In this document: piece by piece, positions 1 through 23,455 of the stretch | Layout: each line of letters begins with the position of its first letter | Position numbering within the stretch: the first letter of the stretch is position 1 | Assembly: GCF_000010065.1 (NCBI RefSeq) | Contig: NC_006576.1 | Coordinates: 1,950,001-1,982,000, forward strand | Reading direction: 5' to 3' | From: Synechococcus elongatus PCC 6301 | GTDB taxonomy: Bacteria > Cyanobacteriota > Cyanobacteriia > Synechococcales > Synechococcaceae | Length of the DNA: 32,000 nucleotides | Translations under genes and position numbers: made by a program | The notes under the pieces: model-generated | What the model was told of the DNA's origin: nothing | Database searches by the model: none | The model's input: the letters and a program-made list of their open reading frames with translations, nothing else

Positions 1-956
1 CCAAAACAGGGGTGGAGTGTGAGTTCTTCCTTCTGGATGAAACCGGAGATGCGATCGCTGATCCGCGCGATCGCCAGGCGAAACCTTGCTACGACCAGCA
101 GTCCCTGATGCGGCGCTACGACCTGATTACCCAGATCAGTGAAGCGATGGAGGAACTGGGCTGGGGGCCGTATCAAAGTGATCATGAAGATGCCGACGGT
201 CAGTTTGAAATGAACTGGACCTATGCGGATGCGCTAGTCACTGCCGATCGCCAGGCTTTCTTCAAGTACATGGTCAAAACTCTCGCGGAACGGCAAGGAT
301 TAAGGGCTACCTTTATGCCCAAGCCCTTCGCGGATTTGACCGGCAATGGTTGCCACATGCACCTTTCACTCTGGAATCGGGAGGGCACAACCAATACTTT
401 TGTCGATCCGGTTGCGACTGCTCCCCTCTCGACCCTGGGCTATCAGTTTATTGGTGGATTGCTGCATTCGGCGGCATCCCTCTGCGCCCTCACCAACCCA
501 ACCATCAACTCCTATAAGCGGATTAATGCACCGGCGACGACCTCGGGTGCGACTTGGTCTCCGAACGGTATTAGCTACAGTGGCAACAACCGCACCCACC
601 TGATCCGTATTCCCGATGCCGGTCGCTTTGAGTTGCGACTCGCCGATGGGGCTGCTAACCCTTACCTGTTGCCTGCTGCCGCGATCGCTGCCGGCTTAGA
701 TGGTATTCAGAACAAACGCGATCCAGGCCCCCGCTACGACAATGACAACTATGCTCAGCCCTTACCACCCGGCACAGTTCCGACCTTGCCCGAGCATTTG
801 CTGGATGCCCTGCGATCGCTACAAGAAAGCACTGTTCTCACCGAAGGTTTGGGAGCTGCGTTCACAAGTGCATACCTCAAGCTTAAGCATCAGGAATGGC
901 GCAGTTTTTGTGCTGAAATTACCCCTTGGGAGCGCGCTACAACCTTGGATTGCTAG
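1..956 (+). CDS. glutamine synthetase family protein, C-terminal catalytic part (5' end lies outside the window)
   Basis: The reading frame is open from the window edge; track ORF 12..956 is its in-window part. GS catalytic-domain motifs are present: GVECEFFLLD, NGCHMHLSLW, NSYKRI, NRTHLIRIP. The motifs look GSI-like (gamma-glutamyl-amine ligase type) rather than type III. Confidence 0.85.
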   Translation, partial: KTGVECEFFLLDETGDAIADPRDRQAKPCYDQQSLMRRYDLITQISEAMEELGWGPYQSDHEDADGQFEMNWTYADALVTADRQAFFKYMVKTLAERQGLRATFMPKPFADLTGNGCHMHLSLWNREGTTNTFVDPVATAPLSTLGYQFIGGLLHSAASLCALTNPTINSYKRINAPATTSGATWSPNGISYSGNNRTHLIRIPDAGRFELRLADGAANPYLLPAAAIAAGLDGIQNKRDPGPRYDNDNYAQPLPPGTVPTLPEHLLDALRSLQESTVLTEGLGAAFTSAYLKLKHQEWRSFCAEITPWERATTLDC

Positions 957-2040
957 CCCCATTGCCCACCTGTAACCAGCGTTGTAACTGCTGTTCTTCG
1001 TGGCGGCGTAAGCGTTGCCCTTTGCGGGTAAATTGCCGCCGCACGATCGCCGCACCAAACCCCAGTTGTACGTCGGCCCCGAGGGCTTGAAGGGGTACTG
1101 CAGCAGAACTGACGGTAAAGACGGGCAGTCCTTGTAGATCGGGCAATAGGCTCAGCAGAATCACTTCGATTGGCCAAAAGGCGAGTTGCGAATCCTGAAG
1201 CACTAGGGGTTCAACCCCAAGGTCAGCGATCGCGGTTGTCAGCTGCTGGAGTTTGGTGGCACTGTCTCGGGGATGGGGTTTGAGTAGCAGGGCCGACGGG
1301 AGTGACTGGTCAGCCAAAAACTGGCGATAGGCTTCAATCTCAGCCGTAAGGCTGATGTAGGCGCCGTCAGCTTGCTCTGAGAGGTTGGCTGTCAGCAATA
1401 CGCCCCACTCTCGCTGAGCCGTCAGTTGTCTCAAACTGGCGATCGCTTGTGTGGGTAAGGCGTTGGCAAGGGTATGTAGGTAGTCCTCAAGGTCAGACAA
1501 AGGGACTGGCTGGCTGGGGAAGGGAGGTTGGCGATCCCCTGAAAAGATGAAATGACCACCATCGGCTGGAAGTGGTTTGGTAGCTGGTGACCACCAAGAT
1601 CGCAGCCGCGATCGCCAGCCCCGCCGCTGCTGCAGCACAGAGTCGGCAGCCACGTAGACCCCCAGCCCATCGCCGTAGCACAGGCAGCGTGCTGTTGGAT
1701 AAAGCTGTCGCAGAAGTTGTTCTTTCGGACGCCAGCCGGTGGCCAGCCACAGTTCATCGACGGTCTCGAGTCCAATCTCTTGTCGGAGTTGTTGTTGTTC
1801 TAGAGCTGATAGGGAGCGCCCCAGCCAACTGGTAAACCGCTCGGGAGCGATTGCTGATCCCGTCAAACCCGGCTGGAGCTGGGTTGCCATGCGGGCAACT
1901 TCGGCAGAGAAAGCCGCAAAACGATCGCGCGGTGCCCATCCCGAAAAGCAGTAGCGATCGGCTTGGAGTCCTTGACTGCGGAGCGCGGCGATCGCCGCAA
2001 CCAGTTGGGCACTGCCAGGACAGTCGATGAGTCGCCGCAT
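937..2040 (-). CDS. uncharacterised GT-B-like protein with HP motif; putative CMP-sugar (Kdo/sialyl-type) glycosyltransferase
   Basis: 367-aa ORF. Its ATG (2038-2040) overlaps the stop of the upstream GT8 gene as ATGA. Its 3' end overlaps the convergent GS gene by 20 nt. The collinear pattern LSEQAD-(about 30 aa)-LLLKPHPRD-...FTVSSAAVPLQALG is shared with ORF 9966..11054. The functional call is inference only. Confidence 0.5.
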   Translation of the reverse strand: MRRLIDCPGSAQLVAAIAALRSQGLQADRYCFSGWAPRDRFAAFSAEVARMATQLQPGLTGSAIAPERFTSWLGRSLSALEQQQLRQEIGLETVDELWLATGWRPKEQLLRQLYPTARCLCYGDGLGVYVAADSVLQQRRGWRSRLRSWWSPATKPLPADGGHFIFSGDRQPPFPSQPVPLSDLEDYLHTLANALPTQAIASLRQLTAQREWGVLLTANLSEQADGAYISLTAEIEAYRQFLADQSLPSALLLKPHPRDSATKLQQLTTAIADLGVEPLVLQDSQLAFWPIEVILLSLLPDLQGLPVFTVSSAAVPLQALGADVQLGFGAAIVRRQFTRKGQRLRRHEEQQLQRWLQVGNGASNPRL

Positions 2041-2876
2041 CAGACCTTGACCGGACGCAGTTGCTGCTTAACTTGGCGCAGCCAGGACCGCAAACGCTGC
2101 CGAGTCAGCCAGCGCGGTCGGTTGCCTTCTCGGATATCGTCGCGGACGTTGAAGCGCTTAATCGCTTGGCTAATTTCTGTGTCTGTGAGGATGCCGGAGT
2201 CGAGTGCCTGCTGCATGGCCTTGAACCAGAGGTCGCCGTAGGGATGACCGGGTCGTTTCCAAGGCTGACGCTTGAGGTCGGTGTAATGGATCAGTCGAGT
2301 TTCGCGATCGGCAAAGTCAAAGCTATTCCAGCGTGGATCCAGTGCCCCGATCTGATAGGGGCGTTTGTTCAAAAAGCGCGGTCCCATGCAGGGCAGATCG
2401 CGATAGTCGTAAACACCGGCTTCCAGTTCATCAATGAACTGTTCGAGGGGAAATCGGCAGCGATCGCAATCAAACAGGACGACACTCAAACCCCAGAGAG
2501 CACCAGCGCGATCGGGATAGGCTTCGGCTTTGGCGAGGAAGTCTGCCCCTTCCAGATCAGTGTCAAACAGTTCGCCAATATCGTGTAGGCAAACCACATC
2601 GGAGTCGATGTAGATGGCGCGGCCTTGGTAGCCGCAGAGTTCTGGAATCAAAAAACGGTAGAGGCTAAACTCCGTCGCATTCCAGTACTTGACCCGCAGT
2701 GACATGGGGGCGGGACGGGGTGGCTCTCCTAAAACCTCTAGGGCGTTGTGGGTGCCGTTAAACGCCGTAATTGCCAACGGGCGATCGGTCATCCGTTGTA
2801 GCGAATCGATCGCCACTTGCCGCTCAATGCGGCTGGCTTCTCCGGAACCAATGAAGATGCGAATGGGATCGGCCAT
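2040..2876 (-). CDS. glycosyltransferase family 8 (retaining, LPS-core type)
   Basis: 278 aa. GT8 hallmarks: YRFLIPELCGYQGRAIYIDSDVVCLHDIGELFDTDL (DxD = DSD) and the C-terminal LIHYTDLKRQPW motif. It is a clear paralogue of ORF 8908..9882. Confidence 0.85.
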   Translation of the reverse strand: MADPIRIFIGSGEASRIERQVAIDSLQRMTDRPLAITAFNGTHNALEVLGEPPRPAPMSLRVKYWNATEFSLYRFLIPELCGYQGRAIYIDSDVVCLHDIGELFDTDLEGADFLAKAEAYPDRAGALWGLSVVLFDCDRCRFPLEQFIDELEAGVYDYRDLPCMGPRFLNKRPYQIGALDPRWNSFDFADRETRLIHYTDLKRQPWKRPGHPYGDLWFKAMQQALDSGILTDTEISQAIKRFNVRDDIREGNRPRWLTRQRLRSWLRQVKQQLRPVKV

Positions 2877-2908
2877 GGGGATATCCCCAGCGAGGGTTAT
2901 CGCCCAAG

Positions 2909-3358
2909 CTACTGTGCTGCTGGAGCTGACAGCAAGCCCGATTGTGCCGCTGGCAGAGGTTGCCGCATCGCAGCCTCAGGTGGGGGTGGAATAATGCCGT
3001 AGCCCTGCCACTCGGGCTCAGACTCCCCGCGACAATCAACGCGAAGGCCATAGCGTGCCAATTGATAGCGATACTCTCCGGTCAGGCAGTCGTTATCACC
3101 ATTGGGAATCAAGTTTTGGTCGATCGCATAGCGGATAGCGGCCTCAACCGTCCGATTCGGCGTGGTCTGAGAGTCAGGGGTCGCGAGTGGCAGTGCCCCC
3201 TGGGCCTGCAGAGCTTGTAGACGGGCCTGATGTTCAGCAAAGTCCCATTGAATCCGAAGCCCCATACAACCGAGAAAACCTAGGGCGATTGTGATCATCA
3301 CGATCGGTTCTCGGTAGCGTTGCCAAGTTTTCTGCAGAAAGCGCGATCGCACAGTCAT
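2909..3358 (-). CDS. hypothetical membrane-anchored protein
   Basis: 149 aa with one N-terminal hydrophobic helix (IVMITIALGFLGCMGL), a coiled QARLQALQAQ segment and a two-Cys C-terminal domain. It sits 4 nt downstream of the ligase-like gene, in the same - strand operon. Confidence 0.6.
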   Translation of the reverse strand: MTVRSRFLQKTWQRYREPIVMITIALGFLGCMGLRIQWDFAEHQARLQALQAQGALPLATPDSQTTPNRTVEAAIRYAIDQNLIPNGDNDCLTGEYRYQLARYGLRVDCRGESEPEWQGYGIIPPPPEAAMRQPLPAAQSGLLSAPAAQ

Positions 3359-3362
3359 GGCT

Positions 3363-5627
3363 TCAGGCGAGCGGAGAACTAGAGGTGGGTAGCCCCTTGG
3401 TTTGGGGAGATCGGCTGGGCATCAAGTGCCCCAGCCACGGTAAGCCCAGCAGGAGGCCAATTAACAGCTGGAGGAGGGGGAGCTTGAAGAAACTGCCCTC
3501 AAACAGGTGGAGTACGAGGCCGGTCACGAGGCTAACTAAGAGCCATTGCCTCAGTAATTGCTGGTCGGCATCGGCTGATTGTTGGATCTGTTGCCAGAGT
3601 CGGATCACAGTGGCTGTCAGCCCGACCAACACGATCGCCAGAACTAGGATGCCGTTATCAGCTAGGAGCTGCAGCACAAAGTTATGAGCGTGTGAGACCC
3701 GATTGAGGGTGAGCGGCGGCTGACAAATGGCGGCAGCTTGACCATAGCCTTGGCCCACCCAGAAACTGACGGGTCCGTTCATCCAAGCTTGACTGACATA
3801 GCAGCGAGCAATCGCGATCCGAGCGGGGTCATAGAACTCGAGGTAACGGCCGACGAGGTCAGGTCGAAGTGCGATGACACCTAGCAATAGGAGGCCAAAG
3901 CCCGGCAGCAGCCAAATCAACGATCGCCGCGATCGGCCTTGCCAGTTGAGGACGCCTGTCATACCAATCGCCAGAACGAACGCTCCCAAGCAAATGCGCG
4001 AGGCGGTTCCGAGGATAATGACGCCACCGGCCAAGCTAGAGAGTAGGTAAAGACCTCGCCAAGTGCGATCTCGCCAAGTTAGCAGCAACGCTGGCACGGT
4101 AGCGATCACAGTCAAAATGCCGACTTGGTTGATGTAGAGATCGCCCATGCTGATGCGAATCGTCCAGTTGATCGCCTGCAAATTCAGCAGTAGCCAGATC
4201 AAGGGGAGAAGACCGATCCAGCGCAGAAGCCGTAGGCTGCGATCGTGCCCGAGACCCGTGGAACCAATTAAACCAAAGCCCAGTAGGACGTAGGCTGACC
4301 AGGTTACTGAGGGATCGAGAGTCGGCTTAGCCCAGAAAGCCGGCGGCAAGAAGATCAAGGCGATCGTCGCCCAACAACCCAAACCGCGCCAATCTCGCTG
4401 CTGAAGCTGCTCAATCACGCAAATCACCAGCCAGCTACCTGCTAAAGGAACGGCCCAAAATGCACTATTGACTTGGAGTGCAAGTGCAACTAGCAAGAGC
4501 CAATCGACCGTTGTAGGGAGGCGAAGTGGTAGCGATCGCGTCCAGGGAATGGCCAAGCTTAGACCCAGCAGTAGAGGTGTTAACCCGCTGTTGAGCCAGT
4601 CGGTCTGAAATAGCAGCATCACGACCCAGAAGCCAAGGAGTGCAGCACCGCCCCCGAGCTGCGATCGCGGTAAATCACTACTGGCGAGCAATTGGCGATA
4701 GCGATCGCCTGCCACAAATCCCAGGGTGAGGACTGCCGCTAGGCCGAGTAGCCCCAACTCTGCCCAGAGTTGTAACAGGCCGCTCATGTTGTCAGCTGTC
4801 TCGCCCGTCAAGGTGCTGCAAGTGGTGGTGACAGATTGCACACCCCGCCCTACCAGCCAACGCAGCAGGTTGTGTTGAATTTGGTCCTGGGCGCAGCGCC
4901 AGAGTAACCCAGCAGGATCCGGTGCCAAAACAGCTGTCGGAAACGGCCAGAGTAGTCCGAGACCAATGCCAGTGCTAATCACCCCCAAACGTCCTAGGGG
5001 CGATCGCGTCCAGGTTCGCCAGAGAGTTATTCCCCAGCGCTGCAGCAGCACCACAATCAGTAGCCCTACCCCCCAGCCGAGACGCAGGGTAAAAGAACCC
5101 AGCCACCAACTTCCGCCCAGACCGATCGCGGCTGCGATACCGAGGGGCCAGCGCCAAGCCGGAGAGAGTCTCTGGGGTTGATCGGTGAAGTTGAAGAGAA
5201 TTGCGATCGCCCACAGCCCAGTCGCCGCCCAAGTCACGGTCAGCATCATGGGATTCAGTGAGTCCGACCAGATCAGAGTCGGCAGGCTGAGCAGCGGGGC
5301 TAGACCCAAGCTCAGCGTCACTTGCGATCGCTGTTGATCGGAAAGGCTGAGCCAACCACTAACGATCACCCCCGTCAGCCAGAGCATCTCACTTTGACCG
5401 ACTGACCAGTCCCGAGTTAAAGCCCGGACGATGGCGGGGCTGCAGAGCAGAGTGGCGATCGCGACGGGTTGCCACGGAAAGCGGCGATCGCGGTTGCTCA
5501 ACGTCTGCCAGATCAGCCACAGCCCCAGACTGGCGAGACTGGCTTCGGGCCAGAGTGGCAGCAGAGTACTGGCAAGCCAGAGGGGAATGACAGAGACCCT
5601 GAACGAGCCGGCTGGAGATGGCATCAT
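3363..5627 (-). CDS. O-antigen ligase/polymerase (Wzy_C) family polytopic membrane protein
   Basis: 754 aa, hydrophobic almost throughout. The C-terminal third carries a Wzy_C-type signature (periplasmic loop ...RVSHAHNFVLQLLADNGILVLAIVLVGL). Confidence 0.8.
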   Translation of the reverse strand: MMPSPAGSFRVSVIPLWLASTLLPLWPEASLASLGLWLIWQTLSNRDRRFPWQPVAIATLLCSPAIVRALTRDWSVGQSEMLWLTGVIVSGWLSLSDQQRSQVTLSLGLAPLLSLPTLIWSDSLNPMMLTVTWAATGLWAIAILFNFTDQPQRLSPAWRWPLGIAAAIGLGGSWWLGSFTLRLGWGVGLLIVVLLQRWGITLWRTWTRSPLGRLGVISTGIGLGLLWPFPTAVLAPDPAGLLWRCAQDQIQHNLLRWLVGRGVQSVTTTCSTLTGETADNMSGLLQLWAELGLLGLAAVLTLGFVAGDRYRQLLASSDLPRSQLGGGAALLGFWVVMLLFQTDWLNSGLTPLLLGLSLAIPWTRSLPLRLPTTVDWLLLVALALQVNSAFWAVPLAGSWLVICVIEQLQQRDWRGLGCWATIALIFLPPAFWAKPTLDPSVTWSAYVLLGFGLIGSTGLGHDRSLRLLRWIGLLPLIWLLLNLQAINWTIRISMGDLYINQVGILTVIATVPALLLTWRDRTWRGLYLLSSLAGGVIILGTASRICLGAFVLAIGMTGVLNWQGRSRRSLIWLLPGFGLLLLGVIALRPDLVGRYLEFYDPARIAIARCYVSQAWMNGPVSFWVGQGYGQAAAICQPPLTLNRVSHAHNFVLQLLADNGILVLAIVLVGLTATVIRLWQQIQQSADADQQLLRQWLLVSLVTGLVLHLFEGSFFKLPLLQLLIGLLLGLPWLGHLMPSRSPQTKGLPTSSSPLA

Positions 5628-5776
5628 TCGCTAGCGCTCCTCAGTGGGACTGCCGCACAGTTAAAAACAATGCAGGGGCGTTGGGCCACTGGGCTGGTCT
5701 GACCCAAGCTTGGCCCCGAGGGGGGTAGAGCCTGTGCTTTAATGCAGAGCCACATCGCGGCTGCCAAAGTATAGCT

Positions 5777-6748
5777 ATGGCTCCTCTCCTGTTTCGACAA
5801 ATTTTGGATTTAGAAGCAGAGGCGATCCAGCGAGCTGCTGAGCGGGCGGATGCTGAAGCTTTCGCGAATGCGACGCAATTGATTGCCAATTGTTCCGGCA
5901 AAGTAGTGCTCAGCGGGGTTGGGAAGTCGGGTATTATCGCCCGCAAAATTACGGCCACGCTGCTCAGCATTGGCACCCTCTCTGCCTTCCTTCATCCCTG
6001 CGACGCCCTGCATGGTGACCTCGGCATCGTCACTGAGCAAGATGTGGTCGTCATGCTCAGCAATAGTGGCGAAACTGACGAACTGCTGGCGATGCTGCCC
6101 CATCTGCAACGGCGTCAGGTGCCGATCATTGCGATCGTTGGCAATATGCGGTCTACACTGGCGCGGGTTGCTGCCGCTGTTTTGGATGCCTCGGTCGATC
6201 GCGAGGCCTGCCCTTTGAATTTGGCCCCGACGGCTAGCACAACGGTGGCGTTGGCGATCGGAGATGCCTTGGCTGCCCAAGTGATGGACTATCGATCGGT
6301 CACGTCTGAGCAGTTTGCCTTTAATCATCCGGCAGGACGCTTGGGTAAGCGGTTGACCCTAAAAGTGGTGGATGTGATGCATCAAGGGGAAGAGCTGCCG
6401 TTGCTGCCGCCGGAAGCTCGTTTTGTGGAGGTGGTGACGGCAATCAGTCGCGGGGGCTTGGGGGCCGTACCGATCGTGGAAGCCGATGGCCGTTTGTTGG
6501 GCTTGATCACGGATGGTGACCTGCGGCGACTCTTGGAACAGACGAGCCCGGCCAAGCTCGATCAAATTACAGCGGCAGAGTTCATGACGCCTCAGCCAAT
6601 TGCCGTTGAAGGTGACCTACTGGCCTATGATGCGCTGCATTTGATGGAAAACCGTCCGTCTCAAATTTCGGTGCTTCCCGTCGTCGATGCGGCCCAGCGC
6701 TGTCTCGGACTGGTGCGGATTCATGATTTGATCCGCAGTGGGATCTAG
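5777..6748 (+). CDS. kpsF: arabinose-5-phosphate isomerase (KpsF/GutQ/KdsD family)
   Basis: 323 aa. SIS domain (GKVVLSGVGKSGIIARKITATLLSIGT, SNSGETDEL) followed by a tandem CBS pair at the C-terminus. First gene of the Kdo operon. Confidence 0.9.
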   Translation: MAPLLFRQILDLEAEAIQRAAERADAEAFANATQLIANCSGKVVLSGVGKSGIIARKITATLLSIGTLSAFLHPCDALHGDLGIVTEQDVVVMLSNSGETDELLAMLPHLQRRQVPIIAIVGNMRSTLARVAAAVLDASVDREACPLNLAPTASTTVALAIGDALAAQVMDYRSVTSEQFAFNHPAGRLGKRLTLKVVDVMHQGEELPLLPPEARFVEVVTAISRGGLGAVPIVEADGRLLGLITDGDLRRLLEQTSPAKLDQITAAEFMTPQPIAVEGDLLAYDALHLMENRPSQISVLPVVDAAQRCLGLVRIHDLIRSGI

Positions 6749-6762
6749 GAGCAGCACAGTCC

Positions 6763-8866
<2,104 letters not shown>

Positions 8867-8907
8867 TCTCGGCTTCGATTCGCGATCGCGTTTTGAGAGG
8901 ATCCGTC

Positions 8908-9882
8908 ATGAACCTGTCTCCGATCCGCCTCTTCATTGGCAGCAGTGCCCGCAACCAAGTGGAAGAACGGGTGCTGGTCTACTCGATTCAGCGGCTGACG
9001 CAGCGACCCTTGGAAGTCTGGAGCCTGTTGGGCGATCGCGGTACGGTGCGCCGTCCTGATGGCTCAGAGCTGCCGTTGCCCGAAGCAATTCGCGATCGCC
9101 TGGGCGGTGCCACCCGCTTCTCTACAGCACGCTACGCCATTCCCCATTTCTGTGGCTATGAAGGGCGGGCAATTTACTGCGACTCGGATCAAATTCTGTT
9201 CACGGATTTGGCGGAATTGTTCGATCGCGATTTAGGGAATGCTGCCGTTGCTGCCGTGCCGGTAACTGCTGCGGTCAGCCGTCGTCGTTACGATCGCCGC
9301 CATTTGGCTCCGCTACGGCAACAAAACCACGCCAGCTACCTGACCAGTGTGATGCTGTTGGATTGCGCCCAACTGCGCCACTGGGATCCGCAGGCGATTT
9401 TGGCAGGGCTGTCGGTCGGTGACTACTCCTACACCGATTTGATGTTCTTGGGGCCGCAGTTCTGCGATCGCTTTGGCCTGAAAGTTCAGGATTTGGAATC
9501 CGGTTGGAATCACTTGGATGTGGTGCAGCCGGATACGAAGCTGCTGCACTTCACCGATCTGGAAACCCAGCCCTGGCGCTTTGCCCATCATCCAGCGGCA
9601 GATCTCTGGGAAAAACTCTACCTGGAGGCGATCGCTAGCGGAGCCCTCGATCGCACCACGATTACGGCTGCTCTGCGTGAAGGCGGTGTCTGTCGCCGGA
9701 TTGCGCTGCTGCCCGATTGGTCGGGACGGCGTGGGCGTTGGCTCAATCGCGTTTGGCGCAGTAGCAGTGCGGTTGGTCAGGAATTGCGGGATGCAAGTCG
9801 CGATCGCCTGCATCGACTCAAGCAACAGGGCAAGGCGATTGCCCAGGATTTTTTCGGGAAAAAACCGTCGTTCTCTCCTTAG
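8908..9882 (+). CDS. glycosyltransferase family 8 (paralogue of 2040..2876)
   Basis: The ATG at 8908 is preceded by GAGAGGA. Motifs: PIRLFIGSSARNQVEERV, CGYEGRAIYCDSDQILFTDLAELFDRDL, LLHFTDLETQPW. All align with the left-hand GT8. Confidence 0.8.
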   Translation: MNLSPIRLFIGSSARNQVEERVLVYSIQRLTQRPLEVWSLLGDRGTVRRPDGSELPLPEAIRDRLGGATRFSTARYAIPHFCGYEGRAIYCDSDQILFTDLAELFDRDLGNAAVAAVPVTAAVSRRRYDRRHLAPLRQQNHASYLTSVMLLDCAQLRHWDPQAILAGLSVGDYSYTDLMFLGPQFCDRFGLKVQDLESGWNHLDVVQPDTKLLHFTDLETQPWRFAHHPAADLWEKLYLEAIASGALDRTTITAALREGGVCRRIALLPDWSGRRGRWLNRVWRSSSAVGQELRDASRDRLHRLKQQGKAIAQDFFGKKPSFSP

Positions 9883-9965
9883 TTGAGCGACTTCCCCAGC
9901 GGTTAGCTCAGCGTTCTCGTCCGCAGATTGCGGCGCTGATTTACTCGCGAGCTTGTCTGCGGGTC

Positions 9966-11054
9966 TTGGTGCCTTACTTAGAGAGGTTGCGTCAGATTCA
10001 GATGACGACCGCCGGCGATCGCCCGTTTGATCTCTGGCTCCTGCTGCCAACGGAACGGGAAGTCAAAGCCCATGAATTGCGATCGCTAGTGGGCTCTGGT
10101 TGCCACCTATCGCGATCGCTATGGCCACTACGCTATCTCCGTGCTAACCCCCAGCAGAGCGTGGGGCTCTTTTGTCTGGATCATCAGCTCTTCCCCGAGG
10201 CGCATCGCTTGGGAATTCGCGTGGCACGTTGGCTGCGTCAGCAAGGGGTCACGACGATCTGCAGTCAGCACGGTGGCACCGATGCCGAGAGTTTGGCAAG
10301 TTTAGCCTCGTCTGCCTCCGAAACCCTGCTGATTTGGGGGCACTATGCCGAGCAGGTGTTGCGCGATCGCTATCATTGGCAACCTTTGCAGCTCAAAGTC
10401 GTTGGCAATCCGCTCCACGATCGCCTCTTCACGATTCCTAAACCAACTCAGCCTGATTTTGATCAGCCGCTGATTCTCGTGGCTACGACGCTGCAACGGG
10501 AGTACGACGATCGCCCCAACTCCCAGCAGTGCTACCGCGACTATTTGCGCTGTTTGTTTTCAGCCTTAGAAAGCATCAACGGACGGGTGATGATCAAACG
10601 CCATCCCCGCGACCCTCAGCAACCGGATCTCTACGCAGAAGTACTGACTGAATTCCCAGCGTTACAGCAGCGGACGACTCTACTCTGGTCTCAGGATCAG
10701 CCCGATACCTACAGGCTGTTGCAGCAGGCCGATTTGGTGATCAGTCGCGCGTCCACGGTGCTGGAGGAAGCAGACATGCTCGGGAAAGCCACGATTGCCT
10801 TTGATCTCTTTCCAAATGGCCCTGCTAGTCGTTATCTGCATTTGCAAGCATTTCCGAACTTTCAGTGGATTGCAGGTAGTGAAACCACGTCTTTAACAAC
10901 GGCAATCCAGACTGCCCTGGCAACGCCTCAACTGCAGACTGATCAAGATCGCGATCGCTGTATTGCAGCATTTAGCGATCGCCTAGATGGACGCTCAGTG
11001 GAGCGTGGTGTGGCGGTCATTCTGGAGCAGCTCCAGCGGCAGCCCAAGCTTTGA
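9966..11054 (+). CDS. uncharacterised GT-B-like protein with HP motif; putative CMP-sugar (Kdo) glycosyltransferase, capsule-synthesis (KpsS/KpsC)-like pattern
   Basis: 362 aa with a TTG start at 9966; an alternative ATG lies at 10002. Pattern: LILVATTLQREYDD-(about 30 aa)-VMIKRHPRD-...ADLVISRASTVLEEADMLGKATIAF, a typical GT-B C-terminal half. The function is inference. Confidence 0.5.
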   Translation: MVPYLERLRQIQMTTAGDRPFDLWLLLPTEREVKAHELRSLVGSGCHLSRSLWPLRYLRANPQQSVGLFCLDHQLFPEAHRLGIRVARWLRQQGVTTICSQHGGTDAESLASLASSASETLLIWGHYAEQVLRDRYHWQPLQLKVVGNPLHDRLFTIPKPTQPDFDQPLILVATTLQREYDDRPNSQQCYRDYLRCLFSALESINGRVMIKRHPRDPQQPDLYAEVLTEFPALQQRTTLLWSQDQPDTYRLLQQADLVISRASTVLEEADMLGKATIAFDLFPNGPASRYLHLQAFPNFQWIAGSETTSLTTAIQTALATPQLQTDQDRDRCIAAFSDRLDGRSVERGVAVILEQLQRQPKL

Positions 11055-11131: not shown

Positions 11132-12259
11132 TTGTCTGTCACTGCCCAGCGATCGCCAATTTTGCTTGCCCCTGCTCAAGTGTTACGAGGCTGGGGCGCA
11201 CTCTCAGAGGCAGGATCTGCGATCGCCCGCGTTGGTCAGCGTCCCCTTGTGGTGGGTGGCGATCGCGCCAGAGCACTCGTCCAAGACAGTTTGACGGCGA
11301 TCGCTTCAGAACAATCCCTGACCCTAGGTTGGGGCAGCAGCTTGCCGGACTGTAGTGAAGCGGTTTTGGCACGGCTCCAGCAAGCAGCAACCGAGCATCA
11401 AGCTGATTGCATTCTAGGTGTGGGCGGCGGTAAGGCGCTCGATACGGCCAAACTGCTGGGGCATCAACTGTCGCTGCCGGTGATCACCGTGCCGACGAGT
11501 GCGGCGACCTGTGCGGCTTGGACAGCATTGGCGAATGTCTATACCGATGCCGGGGCTTGGCTCTACGATGTCGGTCTCGATCGCTGTCCTGAGTTGCTGA
11601 TTCTCGACTTTGAACTGATTGCCCAAGCGCCCCCCCGCACCCTAGCGGCGGGAATTGGGGATGCGATCGCCAAGTGGTACGAAGCTTCCGTCAGCAGTGG
11701 TCATCGCCAAGAAACTTTGGTCGTTGCGGCGGTTCAGCAAGCTCGTGTCCTGCGTGATCTGCTCTTCCAGAAATCGGCTGCCGCGATCGCGGAACCTGGC
11801 GGTGAGCAATGGTACGAAGTGGTGGAAGCCACCGTTTTACTTGCAGGCGTGATTGGGGGGTTAGGTGGGGCGCAATGCCGCACGGTGGCTGCCCATGCTG
11901 TCCACAATGGCTTGACCCATCTGCCCGCTTGTCATGATTGGCTGCACGGCGAGAAGGTTGCCTTCGGTATTTTGGTGCAGTTGCGTTTAGAAGAACTGCA
12001 AGGCACCAACCCGCTGGCAGCAACCGCACGGCAACAACTGCTGAGCTTCTATGCCGATCTGGGGCTGCCGCGCCAATGGTCTGACATGGGCTTAGCGTCC
12101 GTCAGCTTAGCGGATTTGCAGCAAGCGGCAATTCTGGCCTGTGCGCCCGAGTCGGACATTCACCACCTGCCTTTTGCGGTGGATCCTGATCAGCTTTTGG
12201 CGGCGATGGTTTCCACGACTACCCCGATCGCCCGCAGCAACAGTGTGGTGGCTGAATGA
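11132..12259 (+). CDS. iron-containing alcohol/glycerol dehydrogenase family protein
   Basis: 375 aa with a TTG start. Motifs: GVGGGKALDTAKL, VITVPTSAATCAAW, and a His-rich metal site (HAVHNGLTH...HGEKVAFG). Confidence 0.8.
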   Translation: MSVTAQRSPILLAPAQVLRGWGALSEAGSAIARVGQRPLVVGGDRARALVQDSLTAIASEQSLTLGWGSSLPDCSEAVLARLQQAATEHQADCILGVGGGKALDTAKLLGHQLSLPVITVPTSAATCAAWTALANVYTDAGAWLYDVGLDRCPELLILDFELIAQAPPRTLAAGIGDAIAKWYEASVSSGHRQETLVVAAVQQARVLRDLLFQKSAAAIAEPGGEQWYEVVEATVLLAGVIGGLGGAQCRTVAAHAVHNGLTHLPACHDWLHGEKVAFGILVQLRLEELQGTNPLAATARQQLLSFYADLGLPRQWSDMGLASVSLADLQQAAILACAPESDIHHLPFAVDPDQLLAAMVSTTTPIARSNSVVAE

Positions 12260-13167
12260 CTGCGATCGCGCCTGAAACCCGCCTCGGTTCAACCGTTGCC
12301 AACCTAACGGAAGACACCTCCAAGAACCTAGCTGCCGCAATTCAGTGGCAAGCGGTCGCTACAGATTTGCGCGAAGCCCCGATCGAAACTAGCTTTGTGC
12401 AGTTGGGACAGGGCGATCGCCCGCTGCTCTGTCTGCATGGCTTCGACAGCTCCGTGTTTGAATTCCGCCGCCTCTTGCCGCAGCTCGCAGAACAGCATTC
12501 AGTCCGAGCGCTGGACTGTCTGGGTTTTGGATTCACGGAACGGCCTGAAGGGATAGAAATTAGTCCAGATACCATTCGGCAGCATCTCTGGGGCTGCTGG
12601 CAGGCTTGGTATCAGAAACCAATCGTGCTGGTTGGGGCTTCGATGGGTGGGGCGATCGCGATCGATTTCGCCCTGAACTATCCCGAGGCGGTGGCCGGTT
12701 TGATCTTGATCGATAGCGCCGGTATTGCACCGGGGCCGTGGATTGGTCGCTTTTTGCCATCGCCCTTAGATGGCTGGGCGGTGGACTTTCTGGGACGACC
12801 GGATGTGCGTCGTCGCATCAGTGAACGGGCCTATCACGATCCGCAGCGTTGGGTGACGCCGGATGCTGAAACCTGTGCGGCGCTCCATCTCCAGCAACCG
12901 GGCTGGCGCGAGGGGCTACGACGTTTTACTCGCAGTGGCGGCTATGGCTCGATGCGATCGCGCCTCCCTGAACTTCGGCAACCCACGCAACTGGTCTGGG
13001 GTCGCCAAGATCAGATCCTCGGCACCAAAGATGCTGCTGTTTTTCAGCGCCTGTTACCGCAGAGTGAGCTGGTCTGGATTGATGACTGCGGCCACGTTCC
13101 GCATAAAGAACAACCCAGAGCGACGGCTGAAGCAATCGCGACTTTTGTGGCGACTTTACCGACTTGA
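12256..13167 (+). CDS. alpha/beta-fold hydrolase
   Basis: 303 aa. The ATG overlaps the upstream stop as ATGA. HG oxyanion motif (LCLHGFDSS), nucleophile elbow GASMGG, catalytic His in DDCGHVPHKEQP. Confidence 0.85.
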   Translation: MTAIAPETRLGSTVANLTEDTSKNLAAAIQWQAVATDLREAPIETSFVQLGQGDRPLLCLHGFDSSVFEFRRLLPQLAEQHSVRALDCLGFGFTERPEGIEISPDTIRQHLWGCWQAWYQKPIVLVGASMGGAIAIDFALNYPEAVAGLILIDSAGIAPGPWIGRFLPSPLDGWAVDFLGRPDVRRRISERAYHDPQRWVTPDAETCAALHLQQPGWREGLRRFTRSGGYGSMRSRLPELRQPTQLVWGRQDQILGTKDAAVFQRLLPQSELVWIDDCGHVPHKEQPRATAEAIATFVATLPT

Positions 13168-18001: not shown

Positions 18002-19414
18002 CTAGCGCTCTTTGCTGTAGGCATCTTCGCCGTGTAGGGCAAAGTCCAGCCCTTCCAACTCCTGTTCCTCCGTGGCGCGGACACGCATGACCGATTTCAG
18101 GATCGTCCAGATCACGAAGGTAGCGATGCCAACAAAGAGATAGGTAATCAACACGGCTTGGATCTGTGCCCAAGTCATGGCCAAAGGACCCTGGGAGATC
18201 ACCTTGAACTGGGTTGGGAAAGCTTTCTCAACGAGGAAATCCTTCTGGGCAAAAATGCCCGTGAGAATAGCGCCGACGGTTCCGCCAACGCCGTGTACCC
18301 CAAAAGCATCTAGGGAATCATCCAGTCGGATCCGGCTCTTAACTTTGGCGACGAACAGAAAGCAGACTAGGGCTGTCAAGGCACCGATGGGAAGTGCCGC
18401 CCAAACAGGAATGAACCCAGCAGACGGTGTGATTCCGACTAGACCAGCCACCGCGCCGGTTGCGGCGCCTACGGCGGTGGGCTTCCCGAGGTCAATCTGC
18501 TCGAGTAATAGCCAAGTCAGCATGGCTGTTGCTGCTGCCGTATTGGTGGTGAGGAAGGCAAAACCGGCGCCTTGGGCAGCGAAGTAGCTCGCGCCGTTAA
18601 ATCCAAACCAGCCGAACCAAAGCAGACCTGCCCCCAACAAAATAAAGGGCACATTGTGCGGCGGCGACAGACGATTCGGGAAGACGCGACGCGGGCCGAT
18701 CATTGCCACGGACACTAGGGCACCCACCCCAGAGGCAATATGGACAACGGTGCTGCCGGCAAAGTCGAGGGCGCCAATCTGGCCATAGATAAAGCCATTG
18801 CTTCCCCAGACCATGTGCGCCATAGGGATGTAGACAAGCGTGGACCAGAGCAAGCCGAACCAGAACCAAGCCTTAAAATTGACCCGCTCTACCAGCGCTC
18901 CAGAAATCAGAGCGGGCGTAATGATTGCGAACATGCCTTGAAACAGCGCAAAGCTGGAGGCAGACATACCGGAGATCATCAACTCATCGCCGGCCCAGAC
19001 AGGATCAATGCCAAACTTGCCACCGACACCATTGAAAAACAGGTTACTAAAACCGCCGATAAAGGGACTCCCTAAACTGGTGTCGAAAGCGAGACTGTAG
19101 CCATAAATCACCCAAGTCATGCCGACGAGCCCCATCATCAAGAAGCTCATCATCATGATATTTAGGACGTTCTGGGCTCTGCCAAAACCGCCATAGAAAA
19201 AGGCTAGCCCCGGTGTCATCAAAAGGACGAGGGCTGAGCCGATTAGGAGGAGTAGCGTGTCAGTTCCAGTCTTGGCGGCAGTGACGTTGCTATTGAGCTG
19301 CTCCAGCGTTAGCTGAGGTGCAGTTGCTGCCAGAGTTGGATGGGCCAGCAGAAATGCAGAAATGCCAGCCAGTGCTGCAGTCAAACCCAGAGTTCGCCAT
19401 CGTTTGTCGAACAT
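18002..19414 (-). CDS. amtB: ammonium transporter (Amt/MEP/Rh family)
   Basis: 470 aa with a signal-like N-terminus. Amt signatures are present: LDFAGSTVVHIASGVGALV and DDSLDAFGVHGVGGTVGAILTG. There are many TM segments. Confidence 0.93.
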   Translation of the reverse strand: MFDKRWRTLGLTAALAGISAFLLAHPTLAATAPQLTLEQLNSNVTAAKTGTDTLLLLIGSALVLLMTPGLAFFYGGFGRAQNVLNIMMMSFLMMGLVGMTWVIYGYSLAFDTSLGSPFIGGFSNLFFNGVGGKFGIDPVWAGDELMISGMSASSFALFQGMFAIITPALISGALVERVNFKAWFWFGLLWSTLVYIPMAHMVWGSNGFIYGQIGALDFAGSTVVHIASGVGALVSVAMIGPRRVFPNRLSPPHNVPFILLGAGLLWFGWFGFNGASYFAAQGAGFAFLTTNTAAATAMLTWLLLEQIDLGKPTAVGAATGAVAGLVGITPSAGFIPVWAALPIGALTALVCFLFVAKVKSRIRLDDSLDAFGVHGVGGTVGAILTGIFAQKDFLVEKAFPTQFKVISQGPLAMTWAQIQAVLITYLFVGIATFVIWTILKSVMRVRATEEQELEGLDFALHGEDAYSKER

Positions 19415-19486
19415 TGCCTGAGGAATCCTAGAGAGTGTGAAGGTTCGGAGATCTCACAACTCTGGCTAGGCAGACTGGTGATATAC

Positions 19487-19500
19487 GTAACTTTTGCTAC
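19487..19500 (-). promoter_or_regulatory. NtcA-type binding site GTA-N8-TAC upstream of the ammonium transporter gene
   Basis: GTAACTTTTGCTAC is a perfect GTA-N8-TAC palindrome centred about 80 nt upstream of the amt ATG (19414). The nearest -10-like hexamer on the - strand is TAGCCA (19463-19468). That gives an 18-nt spacing, shorter than the usual 20-23 nt. Confidence 0.6.
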
Positions 19501-19511
19501 TTTTTGGGGGA

Positions 19512-19529
19512 ATTTCAGATTTCTGAAAT
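19512..19529. promoter_or_regulatory. perfect 8-bp inverted repeat ATTTCAGA-tt-TCTGAAAT just upstream of the NtcA box
   Basis: Read directly from the sequence. It lies in the AT-rich amt upstream region, 12 nt from the NtcA box. Its function is unknown. Confidence 0.25.
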
Positions 19530-19787
19530 AAACTGCATTTTCTTTGAAGCAAACTGGGAAGGCTTTTCCTCTTGAAAGCGATATGAGGGTAAACCGATCG
19601 CTGGCAACTGAAAAAAGAGTCCTATCTGGCCGAGTGAAAACTCCATTCACTCTAGTAGAGGTATCAGGAGCGATCGCCTAGCAAAGCCCTTAGCGACCAA
19701 GCTACTAGAAGAGATAAAGTCGCTCGAGCCAGCGCTGGTTCAGCCCACTCGCATTGGCAGGATGAAAGGCACATCCTTGCGTGAGAC

Positions 19788-21983: not shown

Positions 21984-21991
21984 GGTTTGCC

Positions 21992-22027
21992 ATGCGAATG
22001 ATGAATCACAGAAATCGATATTCGCAT
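21992..22027. promoter_or_regulatory. candidate operator: 8-bp inverted repeat ATGCGAAT-N20-ATTCGCAT in the divergent promoter region
   Basis: Read directly. It is centred between the kinase-WYL ATG (21935) and the ATG of the Zn-ribbon ORF (22092). Extra GAAT/ATTC half-sites are nearby: GATGAAT at 22000-22006 and ATTCATC at 22073-22079. Confidence 0.3.
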
Positions 22028-22091
22028 CAACTCGATTCTAGAACGGCTGTCTACTGCCCATACTCAGGCCATATTCATCCCGGCTCAAAAA

Positions 22092-22421
22092 ATGACTGAC
22101 TCTTTGCCCGCCTTGCACTGCCCTTTCTGTGGCTTGCCTGTCCACACCGATCAATCGCACTGCCCCCACGTGCGCTTTATCTATTCCTTCGATCGCGCCC
22201 AATTCCATTTTCTGTCGCCTGATCTGGCTGCCGCGATCGCTCAGGCAGAACAACAGCAAGAAGGTTGTGCAGATGCCGAATGGCAATCACCGCCTGAACT
22301 GGCACAAAACCTGTTGTTGCAACGGCCGCAAGCAGCAGTTCTCGATCTGCAGTTGCGGCTACGGAGCTGGGCAGGTTGGTTGGTTGGGGTTGAACAATCT
22401 GCGATCGCCAGTGCGGAATAG
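22092..22421 (+). CDS. hypothetical small protein with an N-terminal zinc-ribbon-like CPFC-X9-HCPH motif
   Basis: 109-aa ORF with an ATG start, divergent from the kinase-WYL gene. The Cys/His cluster is LHCPFCGLPVHTDQSHCPH. I recognise no family. Confidence 0.5.
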   Translation: MTDSLPALHCPFCGLPVHTDQSHCPHVRFIYSFDRAQFHFLSPDLAAAIAQAEQQQEGCADAEWQSPPELAQNLLLQRPQAAVLDLQLRLRSWAGWLVGVEQSAIASAE

Positions 22422-22693
22422 CGGTTTGGATGCCTGAATTGTGGGGTTTGCCTGTGGTTGCGATCGCCCCTAGTTGCTCCGGCAATCAAGTCTGCCGTTT
22501 TGGGCTGCTATCAGTCAGCGGCAAAAATCTTACTGATTCCAACTCACATCCTTGTTGGCGATCGGGCCAAGGATCCCGCCAAAGCTTGGGGAACTTCTCT
22601 GCTGCACCCAGCAAACTTTCCAGACTTTAGGTTGCTGCATCCTCACTGGAACAGACCGCTACAACATAATTGAGAACTTTCGGAGAAATATCC

Positions 22694-23146: not shown

Positions 23147-23205
23147 TCTGGCGGTGCTGCCTCAGTCGGCAAACAGCAACCTAATTTTGTGGTCATTTTT
23201 CTTTT

Positions 23206-23337: not shown

Positions 23338-23373
23338 GACTGGCTGCAAGCTTGGCGGGGCGATCGCGACTGA

Positions 23374-23446: not shown

Positions 23447-23455
23447 AATCTGTCT

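Follow-up and report, generated by a model that had tools for sequence, protein, structure and literature searches.

A CMP-Kdo supply operon with two candidate Kdo-transferase/GT8 modules in Synechococcus elongatus PCC 6301

Cyanobacteria have been reported to carry only lpxA/C/D/B of the lipid A pathway and to be without kdtA (waaA) and lpxK (Opiyo et al. 2010, PMC3087551). Older chemistry gives about 1.5% Kdo for the LPS of Anacystis nidulans, which belongs to the S. elongatus lineage (review PMC4515613); a remark in a sequence-only reading of the present DNA that Kdo is missing from cyanobacterial LPS is thus inapplicable here. S. elongatus is one of those cyanobacteria that have few genes for EPS export (PMC4594306). 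A (K/R)xHP motif is common to sialyltransferases and retaining Kdo transferases, and KrkA combines a Kdo transferase with a ribosyltransferase (PMC12887879). The family NF046086 ('BFO_1060 family glycosyltransferase') includes genetically proven pseudaminic/legionaminic acid (Pse/Leg) transferases of Tannerella (PMC5420450).

The locus compared with these systems lies in Synechococcus elongatus PCC 6301 (GCF_000010065.1, NC_006576.1, 1,950,001-1,982,000 of the forward strand), and the window is this whole stretch of 32,000 nt. All ten open reading frames named in the sequence-only reading are present and are listed in Table 1. The locus is probably a CMP-Kdo supply operon accompanied by a WaaL-like ligase and by two Kdo-transferase/GT8-hexosyltransferase modules of non-WaaA type, and would represent the Kdo branch of surface-glycan assembly, most likely that of LPS, in S. 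elongatus. The region between the two divergent transcription units yields 1 site in a consensus promoter scan against 3.6 expected.

Table 1. Features of the locus, in window coordinates.
Feature	Coordinates	Strand	Basis
HP1, 367-aa GT-B protein, GT38 polysialyltransferase-like, candidate CMP-Kdo transferase (type 1)	937..2040	-	fold, PF07388, gene context
GT8-1, 278-aa GT8-family (retaining GT-A) glycosyltransferase, conserved HP1 partner	2040..2876	-	PF01501 33.7 bits, gathering score 24.3
149-aa protein, one N-terminal membrane anchor	2909..3358	-	hydrophobic segment, residues 18-36
754-aa polytopic membrane protein, Wzy_C / O-antigen-ligase-like C-terminal domain, first gene of its operon	3363..5627	-	Wzy_C residues 531-666
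Intergenic region, 149 bp, divergent, separates two transcription units	5628..5776	.	read directly
KpsF/KdsD, arabinose-5-phosphate isomerase	5777..6748	+	TIGR00393 295.7 bits, cut-off 203.7
KdsB, CMP-Kdo synthetase	6763..7497	+	NF003952 300.7 bits, cut-off 193; TIGR00466 191.3, cut-off 155.2
KdsA, Kdo-8-phosphate synthase	7479..8333	+	NF003543 423.9 bits, cut-off 242; TIGR01362 407.3, cut-off 314
KdsC, Kdo-8-phosphate phosphatase	8330..8866	+	TIGR01670 168.8 bits, cut-off 106.95
GT8-2, 324-aa diverged GT8-family glycosyltransferase, conserved HP2 partner	8908..9882	+	35% identity to GT8-1; PF01501 21.9 bits
HP2, 362-aa GT-B protein, TagB-like nonulosonate transferase relative, candidate CMP-Kdo transferase (type 2)	9966..11054	+	NF046086, fold (2-epimerase-like), gene context

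In the supply operon, the proposed identities of kpsF, kdsB, kdsA and kdsC are all borne out by scores above the curated NCBIfam cut-offs. KpsF/KdsD has a SIS and two CBS domains (Pfam). The overlap of kdsB with kdsA is 19 nt (7479-7497) and that of kdsA with kdsC at 8330 is ATGA, both as had been read. Family membership assigns to KpsF the conversion of ribulose-5-P to arabinose-5-P, to KdsA the condensation of arabinose-5-P with PEP to Kdo-8-P, to KdsC the removal of the phosphate from Kdo-8-P and to KdsB the conversion of Kdo to CMP-Kdo.

HP1 is a candidate CMP-Kdo transferase with a predicted GT-B structure of the GT38/polysialyltransferase type. Its AF2 model (pLDDT 87.9) has as best Foldseek match the CDP-bound bacterial polysialyltransferase 5wcn (E 1.5e-6, TM 0.53), and NST (GT52) is also among the structure matches. 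The S. elongatus protein itself falls below all curated family cut-offs; PF07388 is matched by 14 of the 15 family members, in which the motifs Y-G-D124-G and K254-P-H-P-R-D-S are invariant. In cyanobacteria, sampled from GTDB species genomes, every one of 13 loci has its HP1 homologue immediately after kdsA(-kdsC), with kdsA at most 2 kb upstream. One planctomycete-type locus combines an HP1 homologue with kdsA, kpsF and a Wzt carrying a C-terminal carbohydrate-binding module. The partner GT8-1 matches the GT8 structures 5gvv and 6u4b in profile searches and contains a DxD motif (D91-S-D93) and HYT..QPW. Its orthologues (46-57% identity) are found less than 1 kb directly upstream of HP1 homologues in 14/14 non-cyanobacterial loci spanning Planctomycetota, Acidobacteriota and Bacteroidota, and in three loci a GT8-1 orthologue sits within the kds cluster. 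In S. elongatus the two genes overlap by 1 nt at base 2040 (TGATG) instead of through the ATGA coupling described earlier.

HP2 is likewise a candidate CMP-Kdo transferase, a relative of the TagB-like Pse/Leg transferases that is epimerase-like by its modelled fold. Foldseek searches with its AF2 model (pLDDT 87.7) return UDP-GlcNAc 2-epimerases, TagF and NeuC, and the best of these matches are the 2-epimerases rather than transferases. HP2 too is below all curated cut-offs, and some members of its family pass that of Pfam Epimerase_2 (46.9 bits). All 35 family members match NF046086 (best 1.7e-18) in the part of the Tannerella enzymes that binds the donor, their C-terminal half, and Q-H102-G-G-T and K211-R-H-P-R-D are invariant. 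Directly upstream of HP2 homologues, kpsF-kdsB-kdsA-kdsC or a Kdo-like cassette is present in 10/12 loci. GT8-2 scores just under the PF01501 cut-off (24.3 bits); it retains D92-S-D94 and HFTDLETQPW and has neither GSGEAS nor FNGTHN, motifs of the GT8-1 clade. At one locus a GT8-2 orthologue (48% identity) separates kdsC from the HP2 homologue. Moreover, four protein clusters carry a GT8-2-type domain (39-50% identity) and an HP2-type domain on a single chain; these clusters are at most 45% identical to one another.

The paralogy of GT8-1 and GT8-2 proposed earlier is clear (35% identity over 277 aa, E 2e-51), and the motifs quoted for it are present. A collinear core in the two terminal proteins, also proposed, is not demonstrable at sequence level: a BLASTP alignment of HP1 with HP2 reaches E 0.042 and is confined to 29 residues around K-P/R-H-P-R-D, and a profile-profile comparison by hhalign, limited to 144 columns of the C-terminal domain, reaches only 62% probability (E 7.5e-5). 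The (K/R)xHP cytidine-nucleotide motif is present in both. HP1 and HP2 belong to different families and paralogy is limited to the GT8 genes, so the locus is not one two-gene module duplicated in mirror image. Judged by sequence, the two modules are analogous and of different ancestry and do not stem from a recent duplication.

The 754-aa protein was described as Wzy_C-type. The motif H648-N-x9-G, of WaaL type, and roughly 16-18 hydrophobic segments agree with this, but its Pfam Wzy_C match (E 3.6e-6, 27.3 bits) stays under the gathering score of 31.7. Homologues form only four clusters, all from the S. elongatus lineage, and the NCBI name is 'O-antigen ligase family protein'. The 149-aa product, encoded inside the minus-strand operon, starts 4 nt past this gene and ends 32 nt ahead of GT8-1; it is membrane-anchored as proposed, through a single N-terminal transmembrane segment, and has no match in Pfam or NCBIfam and no homologue across the related loci.

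The central proposal of the sequence-only reading, that the HP-motif proteins are non-WaaA, CMP-Kdo-dependent transferases that serve, with GT8 partners, a Kdo-containing envelope glycan, had been staked on co-occurrence with kds genes in other genomes, and such co-occurrence is found for both families. Together with the GT-B folds, the HP2 family match and the GT8::HP2 fusions, it makes HP1 and HP2 look CMP-Kdo-dependent, as candidates. In agreement with that reading, the window contains no GT30/WaaA-like ORF. The short-lived CMP-Kdo would be consumed at the cytoplasmic membrane face by HP1 and HP2 acting as soluble or peripheral GT-B enzymes. GT8-1 with HP1 and GT8-2 with HP2, arranged back to back, would each place a hexose/Kdo unit onto a lipid-linked glycan. 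Across phyla the median identity is 52% for GT8-1 and 27% for HP1, which fits a Kdo transferase, HP1, that recognises a lineage-specific acceptor, after which GT8-1 would act on Kdo, which is invariant. The WaaL-like protein, whose gene shares a transcript with those of GT8-1 and HP1, may then ligate or polymerise the product in the periplasm. The locus was also called self-contained, which it is not, as an initiating transferase, a flippase and an ABC exporter are all absent from it.

Each GT8/HP pair might instead be a two-component, alternating co-polymerase, its product a hexose-Kdo heteropolymer (capsule, EPS or O-chain) and not single residues added to the end of a chain or to an LPS core. 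The relatives of HP1 in GT38 polymerise processively, and genes of EPS type (sulfotransferases, Poly_export, ABC exporters, Wzy_C, a Capsule_synth protein) are found at homologue loci. A hexosyltransferase and an ulosonate transferase fused in one chain recall the architecture of KrkA and also the meningococcal W/Y capsule polymerases. This reading is nevertheless unlikely, given the small share of Kdo in A. nidulans LPS, the paucity of EPS export genes in S. elongatus, the lack of an exporter in the locus and the unequal conservation of GT8-1 and HP1, unexpected if a common repeat unit fixed both acceptors.

That HP2, and perhaps HP1, is a nucleotide-sugar enzyme of the 2-epimerase/hydrolase type, with Kdo moved by another enzyme, is highly improbable. 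Foldseek places some 30 UDP-GlcNAc or UDP-ManNAc3NAcA 2-epimerases at the head of the HP2 matches (E about 1e-9), but with TM-scores of just 0.5-0.6, as in generic GT-B matches, and TagF is matched as well. The family profile of HP2 matches 4neq, a UDP-GlcNAc 2-epimerase (E 0.004), and most homologues have Epimerase_2 as their precomputed Pfam label; these sequence matches, however, are restricted to the C-terminal nucleotide-binding half, and the best curated-family match is to CMP-nonulosonate transferases. The fusions to GT8, a GT4 gene after the HP2 homologue in six loci, and the putative replacement (Q-H-G-G-T) of the Glu in the epimerase motif H-x-E-A-G also argue against an epimerase. 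There is also very little likelihood that CMP-Kdo goes to a lipid A Kdo transferase, canonical or cryptic, encoded elsewhere, the GT8/HP modules using other donors (CDP-glycerol, CMP-nonulosonate) for an unrelated glycan and the clustering reflecting shared regulation only. Weak Glyphos_transf (TagB/F) matches in HP2 homologues would suit it, as would the GT8-1/HP1 pairs beyond cyanobacteria, most of which have no kds gene within 10 kb and are linked to Kdo by orthology only. Against it, two unrelated HP families each adjoin kdsA-kdsC in many independent cyanobacterial genomes, the window is without CDP-glycerol or nonulosonate pathway genes, and kdtA and lpxK are reported missing from cyanobacteria.

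The preferred reading is of two ancient, analogous enzyme pairs that would have been gathered around one kds operon. HP1 and HP2 are candidates for new Kdo-transferase families, of kinds not previously described, in a phylum reported to be without the usual one.

The Synechococcus elongatus locus consists of two divergent gene sets whose features are collected in the table below. Each set contains a GT8-family protein, GT8-1 or GT8-2, paired with a GT-B-like protein, HP1 (367 aa) or HP2 (362 aa), and HP1 and HP2 are candidate CMP-Kdo transferases. Pathway membership was defined by a score above the curated equivalog or subfamily cut-off, which KpsF/KdsD, KdsA, KdsC and KdsB all pass, and these family scores show a predicted supply of CMP-Kdo in four steps by KpsF, KdsA, KdsC and KdsB. 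The gene coordinates of the sequence-only reading agree with the ORF map, and the 19-nt kdsB/kdsA overlap and the ATGA overlap of kdsA and kdsC that it described are both real. The GT8-1/HP1 junction, read there as ATGA, is TGATG with a 1-nt overlap. Scans for promoter-like sites (1 found against 3.6 expected) and terminator-like sites (17 found against 10.7 +/- 3.2) are uninformative.

Features of the Kdo locus and of a neighbouring segment, in window positions
Feature	Position	Strand	Basis or remark
HP1	937-2040	-	ORF map
GT8-1	2040-2876	-	ORF map, PF01501
149-aa ORF	2909-3358	-	ORF map
754-aa membrane protein	3363-5627	-	ORF map
divergent gap			149 bp, separating minus- and plus-strand gene sets
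kpsF	5777-6748	+	curated NCBIfam cut-off passed, 295.7 bits against 203.7
kdsB	6763-7497	+	curated NCBIfam cut-off passed, 300.7 bits against 193
kdsA	7479-8333	+	curated NCBIfam cut-off passed, 423.9 bits against 242
kdsC	8330-8866	+	curated NCBIfam cut-off passed, 168.8 bits against 106.95
GT8-2	8908-9882	+	ORF map
HP2	9966-11054	+	ORF map
731-aa protein	19788-21983	-	N-terminal AAA_33 P-loop kinase domain, C-terminal WCX domain

The two GT8 proteins are paralogous, as had been read from the sequence (35% identity, E 2e-51). The Pfam family PF01501 is matched by all 20 clade members examined; GT8-1 itself scores 33.7 bits against a gathering score of 24.3, and GT8-2 falls slightly under it at 21.9. 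A D-S-D motif and a C-terminal HYT/HFT..QPW signature (H-x-T-D/N-L-x-x-Q-P-W) are invariant in both proteins and in the clade. Judged by Pfam score, DxD motif and C-terminal H...(K/Q)PW, GT8-1 and GT8-2 are assigned to GT8, and since only the central third of the PF01501 model is aligned, they would form a divergent GT8 subfamily.

The same kinship does not extend to their partners. HP1 and HP2 had been taken for copies of one another, a claim that fails: the BLASTP match is limited to a K-P/R-H-P-R-D stretch with an E value of 0.04, and comparison of the two family profiles gives a probability of 62% across 144 C-terminal columns. A recent duplication of the whole GT8 plus HP module is rejected because HP1 and HP2 are barely alignable and their family affiliations differ. 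Both carry a (K/R)xHP motif (K254-P-H-P in HP1, K211-R-H-P in HP2), by which the retaining Kdo transferases GT99 and GT107, and sialyltransferases from several GT families, bind the cytidine nucleotide (PMC12887879). GT8-1 with HP1 and GT8-2 with HP2 are two distinct conserved modules.

The tie to kds genes, which the sequence-only reading had proposed to check in other genomes, recurs there: in 13 of 13 cyanobacterial loci for HP1 and, Kdo-like cassettes included, in 10 of 12 loci for HP2. A family-motif scan of one genome per GTDB species gave 33 HP1 loci, and all ten window proteins were compared by tblastn with the loci retrieved. In every one of the 13 cyanobacterial or cyanobacterial-like loci with upstream sequence, kdsA, usually as kdsA-kdsC, ends less than 2 kb upstream of the HP1 homologue; they include Thermosynechococcaceae, Gloeocapsopsis, Pleurocapsa, Myxosarcina, Chroococcidiopsis, Scytonema, Leptolyngbya, Hyellaceae and Pseudanabaenaceae. 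In three loci (L012, L020 and L021) the GT8-1 orthologue lies within the kds cluster. In the non-cyanobacterial loci (Planctomycetota, a Pyrinomonadaceae, Cytophagales) a GT8-1 orthologue is found less than 1 kb upstream of HP1 in 14/14, and kdsA/kpsF lie near the pair in only one of these (L003). Identity to the window protein is 46-57% (median 52%) for GT8-1 orthologues and 23-40% (median 27%) for HP1 homologues.

For HP2, 12 loci were compared in which the sequence reaches 3 kb or more upstream. In ten of them HP2 directly follows a Kdo or Kdo-like cassette, a variant one in four (L001, L042, L043, L046) and a canonical one in six (L005, L006, L040, L041, L047, L048), where all four genes are present or as many as remain on the contig. 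The order kdsA-kdsC-GT8-HP2 of L041 is exactly that of S. elongatus, and the GT8 of this locus shares 48% identity with GT8-2 and 30% with GT8-1. The remaining two loci (L049, L050) encode a single 728-aa ORF in which a GT8-2-type domain is fused to an HP2-type domain. An exhaustive profile search over 1.84 billion representatives returned 46 clusters at E<=1e-30, four of them such fusions of 701-754 aa that are at most 45% identical to one another. Fusion proteins are found at 6819-9005 of L050, in L049, and as the protein clusters P0066, P0067, P0073 and P0076. Among the loci examined, only S. elongatus has both modules, one on each side of the kds operon.

The variant cassette precedes the HP2 homologue in four loci, Halomicronema hongdechloris among them (L001 6108-9703, L042 3023-6615, L043 4289-8140, L046 2411-5289). 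Where KpsF would be expected it encodes a ribulose-phosphate-3-epimerase::CBS fusion, and its CTP_transf_3 protein has about 40% identity to KdsB; the other members are a HAD phosphatase and a 340-aa DAHP_synth_1 protein, which is only 28-30% identical to KdsA and has a weak NeuB match. L042 and L043 also have a true KdsB (about 55% identity) next to the cassette. The cassette product may be a different 3-deoxy-ulosonic acid.

The neighbours of HP1 and HP2 homologues in other genomes are polysaccharide-assembly genes. L020 carries an initiating Bac_transf protein, Wzm, and Wzt with a Wzt_C carbohydrate-binding domain, continues with an acetyltransferase, GT8-1, kpsF-kdsB-kdsA-kdsC, HP1, a methyltransferase, GT2 and GT4, and is resembled by L003. 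Elsewhere the neighbours are three sulfotransferases, GH10, GT90 and a 432-aa Wzy_C protein (L010), Poly_export and an ABC exporter (L006), or Capsule_synth (KpsC/KpsS-like), an ABC exporter, DegT, GT2, an FkbM methyltransferase and several GT4 proteins (L050). Sulfotransferase genes recur beside or inside cyanobacterial kds-HP clusters (L010 5451-8518 and 16523-17251, L006 3712-4620, L040 6741-7580, L042 13186-14229), in L040 between kdsB and kdsA. Their recurrence hints at sulfated Kdo-containing polysaccharides.

Around the S. elongatus locus, the 3′ end of HP1 overlaps by 20 nt (937-956) a convergent ORF with a glutamine-synthetase catalytic domain (12-956, plus strand; PF00120, E 1.8e-87). 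Downstream of HP2, 77 nt away and likewise on the plus strand, come genes for a 375-aa Fe-ADH-family protein and a 303-aa alpha/beta-hydrolase (11132-13167, with an ATGA overlap at 12256), whereas in six other loci the gene after HP2 is a GT4. Further on, positions 19000-24000 have a G+C content of 0.49-0.54 against about 0.58 elsewhere, the low-G+C segment ending at tRNA-Arg(TCT) (23372-23447, minus strand). A 158-aa ORF in this region has no Pfam match, and the region looks like a tRNA-flanked acquired island.

The likeness of HP1 is to the alpha-2,8-polysialyltransferases of GT38. The corresponding Pfam model PF07388 is found in 14/15 HP1-family members (best 1.2e-12), window HP1 itself reaching 14.5 bits against a cut-off of 23.3. 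The AF2 model of HP1 (pLDDT 87.9) has as its top fold match 5wcn, a bacterial polysialyltransferase CDP complex (E 1.5e-6, 10% identity), and its next sialyltransferase match is NST (GT52) at rank 3. HP1 shares the HP motif with GT38 and reads YGDG where GT38 has the acidic motif D/E-D/E-G, that is, G-D-G at the acidic positions. A search of PDB sequences with the HP1-family profile gave nothing useful, the best match being WbpE at E 1.2. HP1 would also resemble GT38 in using a CMP-activated 2-keto-3-deoxy acid sugar as donor. It differs in that its family neighbours the Kdo pathway, whereas polysialyltransferases neighbour the sialic acid pathway, and in its constant pairing with a GT8 gene, which polysialyltransferases do not have.

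HP2 could, though improbably, be something other than a transferase. Precomputed Pfam labels of its family are Epimerase_2 or Glyphos_transf, and the AF2 model (pLDDT 87.7) matches UDP-GlcNAc 2-epimerases, TagF and NeuC with TM scores of 0.5-0.6, a predicted epimerase-like fold that keeps the non-transferase reading alive. Against the UDP-GlcNAc 2-epimerase model PF02350, for which a member should align over its full length with the N-terminal catalytic acids, window HP2 scores 23.0 bits (cut-off 30.6) over residues 194-278 only; a fused homologue reaches 46.9 bits, aligned to model positions 109-283. As for a transferase role, the C-terminal half of NF046086, the 'BFO_1060 family glycosyltransferase', is matched by all 35 HP2-family members (best 1.7e-18), and TIGR04396 by 34/35. 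Window HP2 scores 40.4 bits against an NF046086 cut-off of 200, over model positions 223-362 of 365 only; its homology to this family is confined to the donor-binding domain and falls short of full membership. At 362 aa, HP2 is shorter than most relatives (about 440-480 aa), which have some 90 further residues at the N-terminus; no in-frame start was found further upstream of 9966-11054. The Tannerella forsythia proteins BFO_1060 and Tanf_01245 are genetically proven pseudaminic/legionaminic acid transferases; they are TagB-like, carry D/E-D/E-G and HP motifs, and are encoded just 3′ of CMP-nonulosonate genes (PMC5420450). Like Tanf_01245, TFUB4_00887 and BFO_1060, HP2 has TagB-like GT-B character and the HP motif, and its gene lies immediately downstream of CMP-ulosonate biosynthesis genes. 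It differs from them in an N-terminal acceptor/sugar domain unrelated by sequence and in an adjacent pathway that leads to the eight-carbon Kdo and not to a nine-carbon sugar.

The third component, the 754-aa membrane protein, scores 27.3 bits against the Wzy_C model PF04932 (cut-off 31.7), carries a precomputed PF04932 label and is named 'O-antigen ligase family protein' by NCBI. It has about 16-18 hydrophobic segments and an H648-N-x9-G motif, and by sequence may equally be a ligase or a polymerase. Among the 50 related loci examined, none has a homologue of this protein or of the 149-aa membrane-anchored ORF, so genomic context is uninformative about their roles. Only four clusters contain the 754-aa protein, all from the S. 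elongatus lineage, within which it diverges fast (64-82% identity between strains); it is about twice as long as a typical WaaL. Comparing its N-terminal half (about 500 residues) with its C-terminal half gave no match, so an internal duplication is unsupported. A 2012 study by Simkovsky et al., which included a grazing screen, reportedly named the predicted waaL and O-antigen genes of S. elongatus. Literature searches pairing Synpcc7942 tags with kds gene names or octulosonate turned up nothing relevant.

As tabulated in PMC4515613 from Weise 1970 and Katz 1977, the LPS of Anacystis nidulans, which belongs to the S. elongatus lineage, contains about 1.5% Kdo and beta-hydroxymyristate and no heptose. 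Kdo is absent from marine Synechococcus and several other cyanobacteria (PMC4515613). Cyanobacteria reportedly possess only lpxA/C/D/B from the set of nine genes for Kdo2-lipid A, and hence no kdtA (PMC3087551); on this literature waaA is taken to be absent from the S. elongatus genome. Pereira et al. found a confined distribution of KpsF/KpsU in cyanobacteria and suggested 'different mechanisms to transfer Kdo' (PMC4594306). Within the 32-kb window the GT30 model PF04413 (WaaA/KdtA) has no match at E<=0.1 in any of the ten proteins or the other ORFs, which bears out the sequence-only reading that no waaA-like gene is present there.

In the mechanism proposed here, HP1 and HP2 would use CMP-Kdo to add Kdo to lipid-linked acceptors on the inner side of the membrane. 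Each GT8 partner, as a retaining enzyme, would attach a hexose, in the simplest case to the Kdo just added, although the reverse order is possible; action of GT8 on newly added Kdo would explain why it is far better conserved than the Kdo-transferase half. The 754-aa protein, from its sub-cut-off Wzy_C match, H-N-x9-G motif and hydrophobic segments, would ligate or polymerise the product in the periplasm. That product may be an LPS core element, an exporter-recognised O-chain cap or a hexose-Kdo polymer. In the boldest form of this proposal, which is improbable as a whole, HP1 and HP2 are two new CAZy-level families of CMP-Kdo glycosyltransferases, one of which, with its GT8 partner, joins Kdo in S. 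elongatus directly to unphosphorylated lipid A or inner core, replacing WaaA. If true, LPS with Kdo would be made without WaaA in a phylum usually called Kdo-free. The locus as such would give a concrete answer to which enzymes account for the Kdo found in A. nidulans LPS in the 1970s, and to why some cyanobacteria have kpsF and kpsU/kdsB in a phylum without waaA and mostly without kpsC/kpsS, a puzzle raised in PMC4594306. S. elongatus is a model cyanobacterium amenable to genetics, and the genes are testable targets for changing its surface, which bears on grazing, biofilm traits and the adsorption of phages.

Enzymes other than WaaA that transfer Kdo are under active study, and to these the locus would add two more candidate families, each backed by strong comparative evidence (operon linkage to kdsA-kdsC in many genomes, a conserved GT8 partner over four phyla, gene fusions). 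The known non-WaaA enzymes, GT99, GT107, GT137, GT140 and KdoT, were all defined in 2016-2026, each from one pathogen system. HP1 and HP2 would share the use of CMP-Kdo with WbbB (GT99), KpsC/KpsS (GT107), ORF7 of K. pneumoniae O4 (GT137) and KrkA of E. coli K13 (GT140), and a likeness may also be drawn to the acceptors of these enzymes, which are polysaccharides or glycolipids and not lipid IVA. GT99, GT107 and GT140 have in common a GT-B-derived fold and the (K/R)xHP cytidine-binding motif (PMC12887879), which is the sole feature common to KpsC/KpsS and HP1/HP2. HP1 and HP2 show no detectable sequence similarity to any of the four enzymes, with no match to Capsule_synth (PF05159, GT107) at E<=0.1 and no GT99 or GT140 match among PDB sequences at E<=10. 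WbbB and KpsC are outside the top 50 fold matches of both, and KrkA (9yfx) is a marginal match to HP1 (E 1.1e-2, TM 0.23). Unlike GT99 and GT107, both look like an unmodified two-Rossmann GT-B without the helical insertion described for those families. Membership of GT30, GT107, GT99 or GT140 is thus rejected on sequence and fold, and GT137, described as having a methyltransferase-like sheet topology, is set aside by that published fold description alone.

In the O12 and O4 antigens, Kdo is a chain terminator read by the carbohydrate-binding module of Wzt; similarly, Wzt_C-bearing transporters adjoin the HP1 homologues of L003 and L020. Known non-WaaA Kdo transferases often share a protein or an operon with another transferase activity, as HP1 and HP2 are paired with GT8. 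KdoT/GnaT of Acinetobacter baumannii, a non-WaaA GT-B CMP-Kdo transferase and a next-sugar transferase that are co-dependent in vivo (PMC12856342), are a precedent for such a module. KdoT shows no sequence relation to HP1 or HP2, and unlike them it is ELM1-like and adds Kdo III to WaaA-made Kdo2-lipid A (PMC12856342); its partner is a GT4 and not a GT8. The enterobacterial waa locus offers a further parallel. Its GT8 retaining hexosyltransferases are of the outer-core WaaI/J/O/R/T type, and like it the S. elongatus locus combines candidate Kdo transferases, GT8 proteins and a WaaL-like protein in divergent operons. In contrast to waa, the candidates here are not GT30, heptosyltransferases and kinases are missing, the kds genes lie inside the locus, and the ligase-like protein has twice the usual length. 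The closest functional analogues of HP1 and HP2 are the non-WaaA Kdo transferases GT99, GT107, GT137, GT140 and KdoT. By descent HP1 appears nearer the GT38 sialyltransferases and HP2 nearer the TagB-like nonulosonate transferases, which makes the two proteins candidates for new families of Kdo transferase, each with a GT8 partner of its own.
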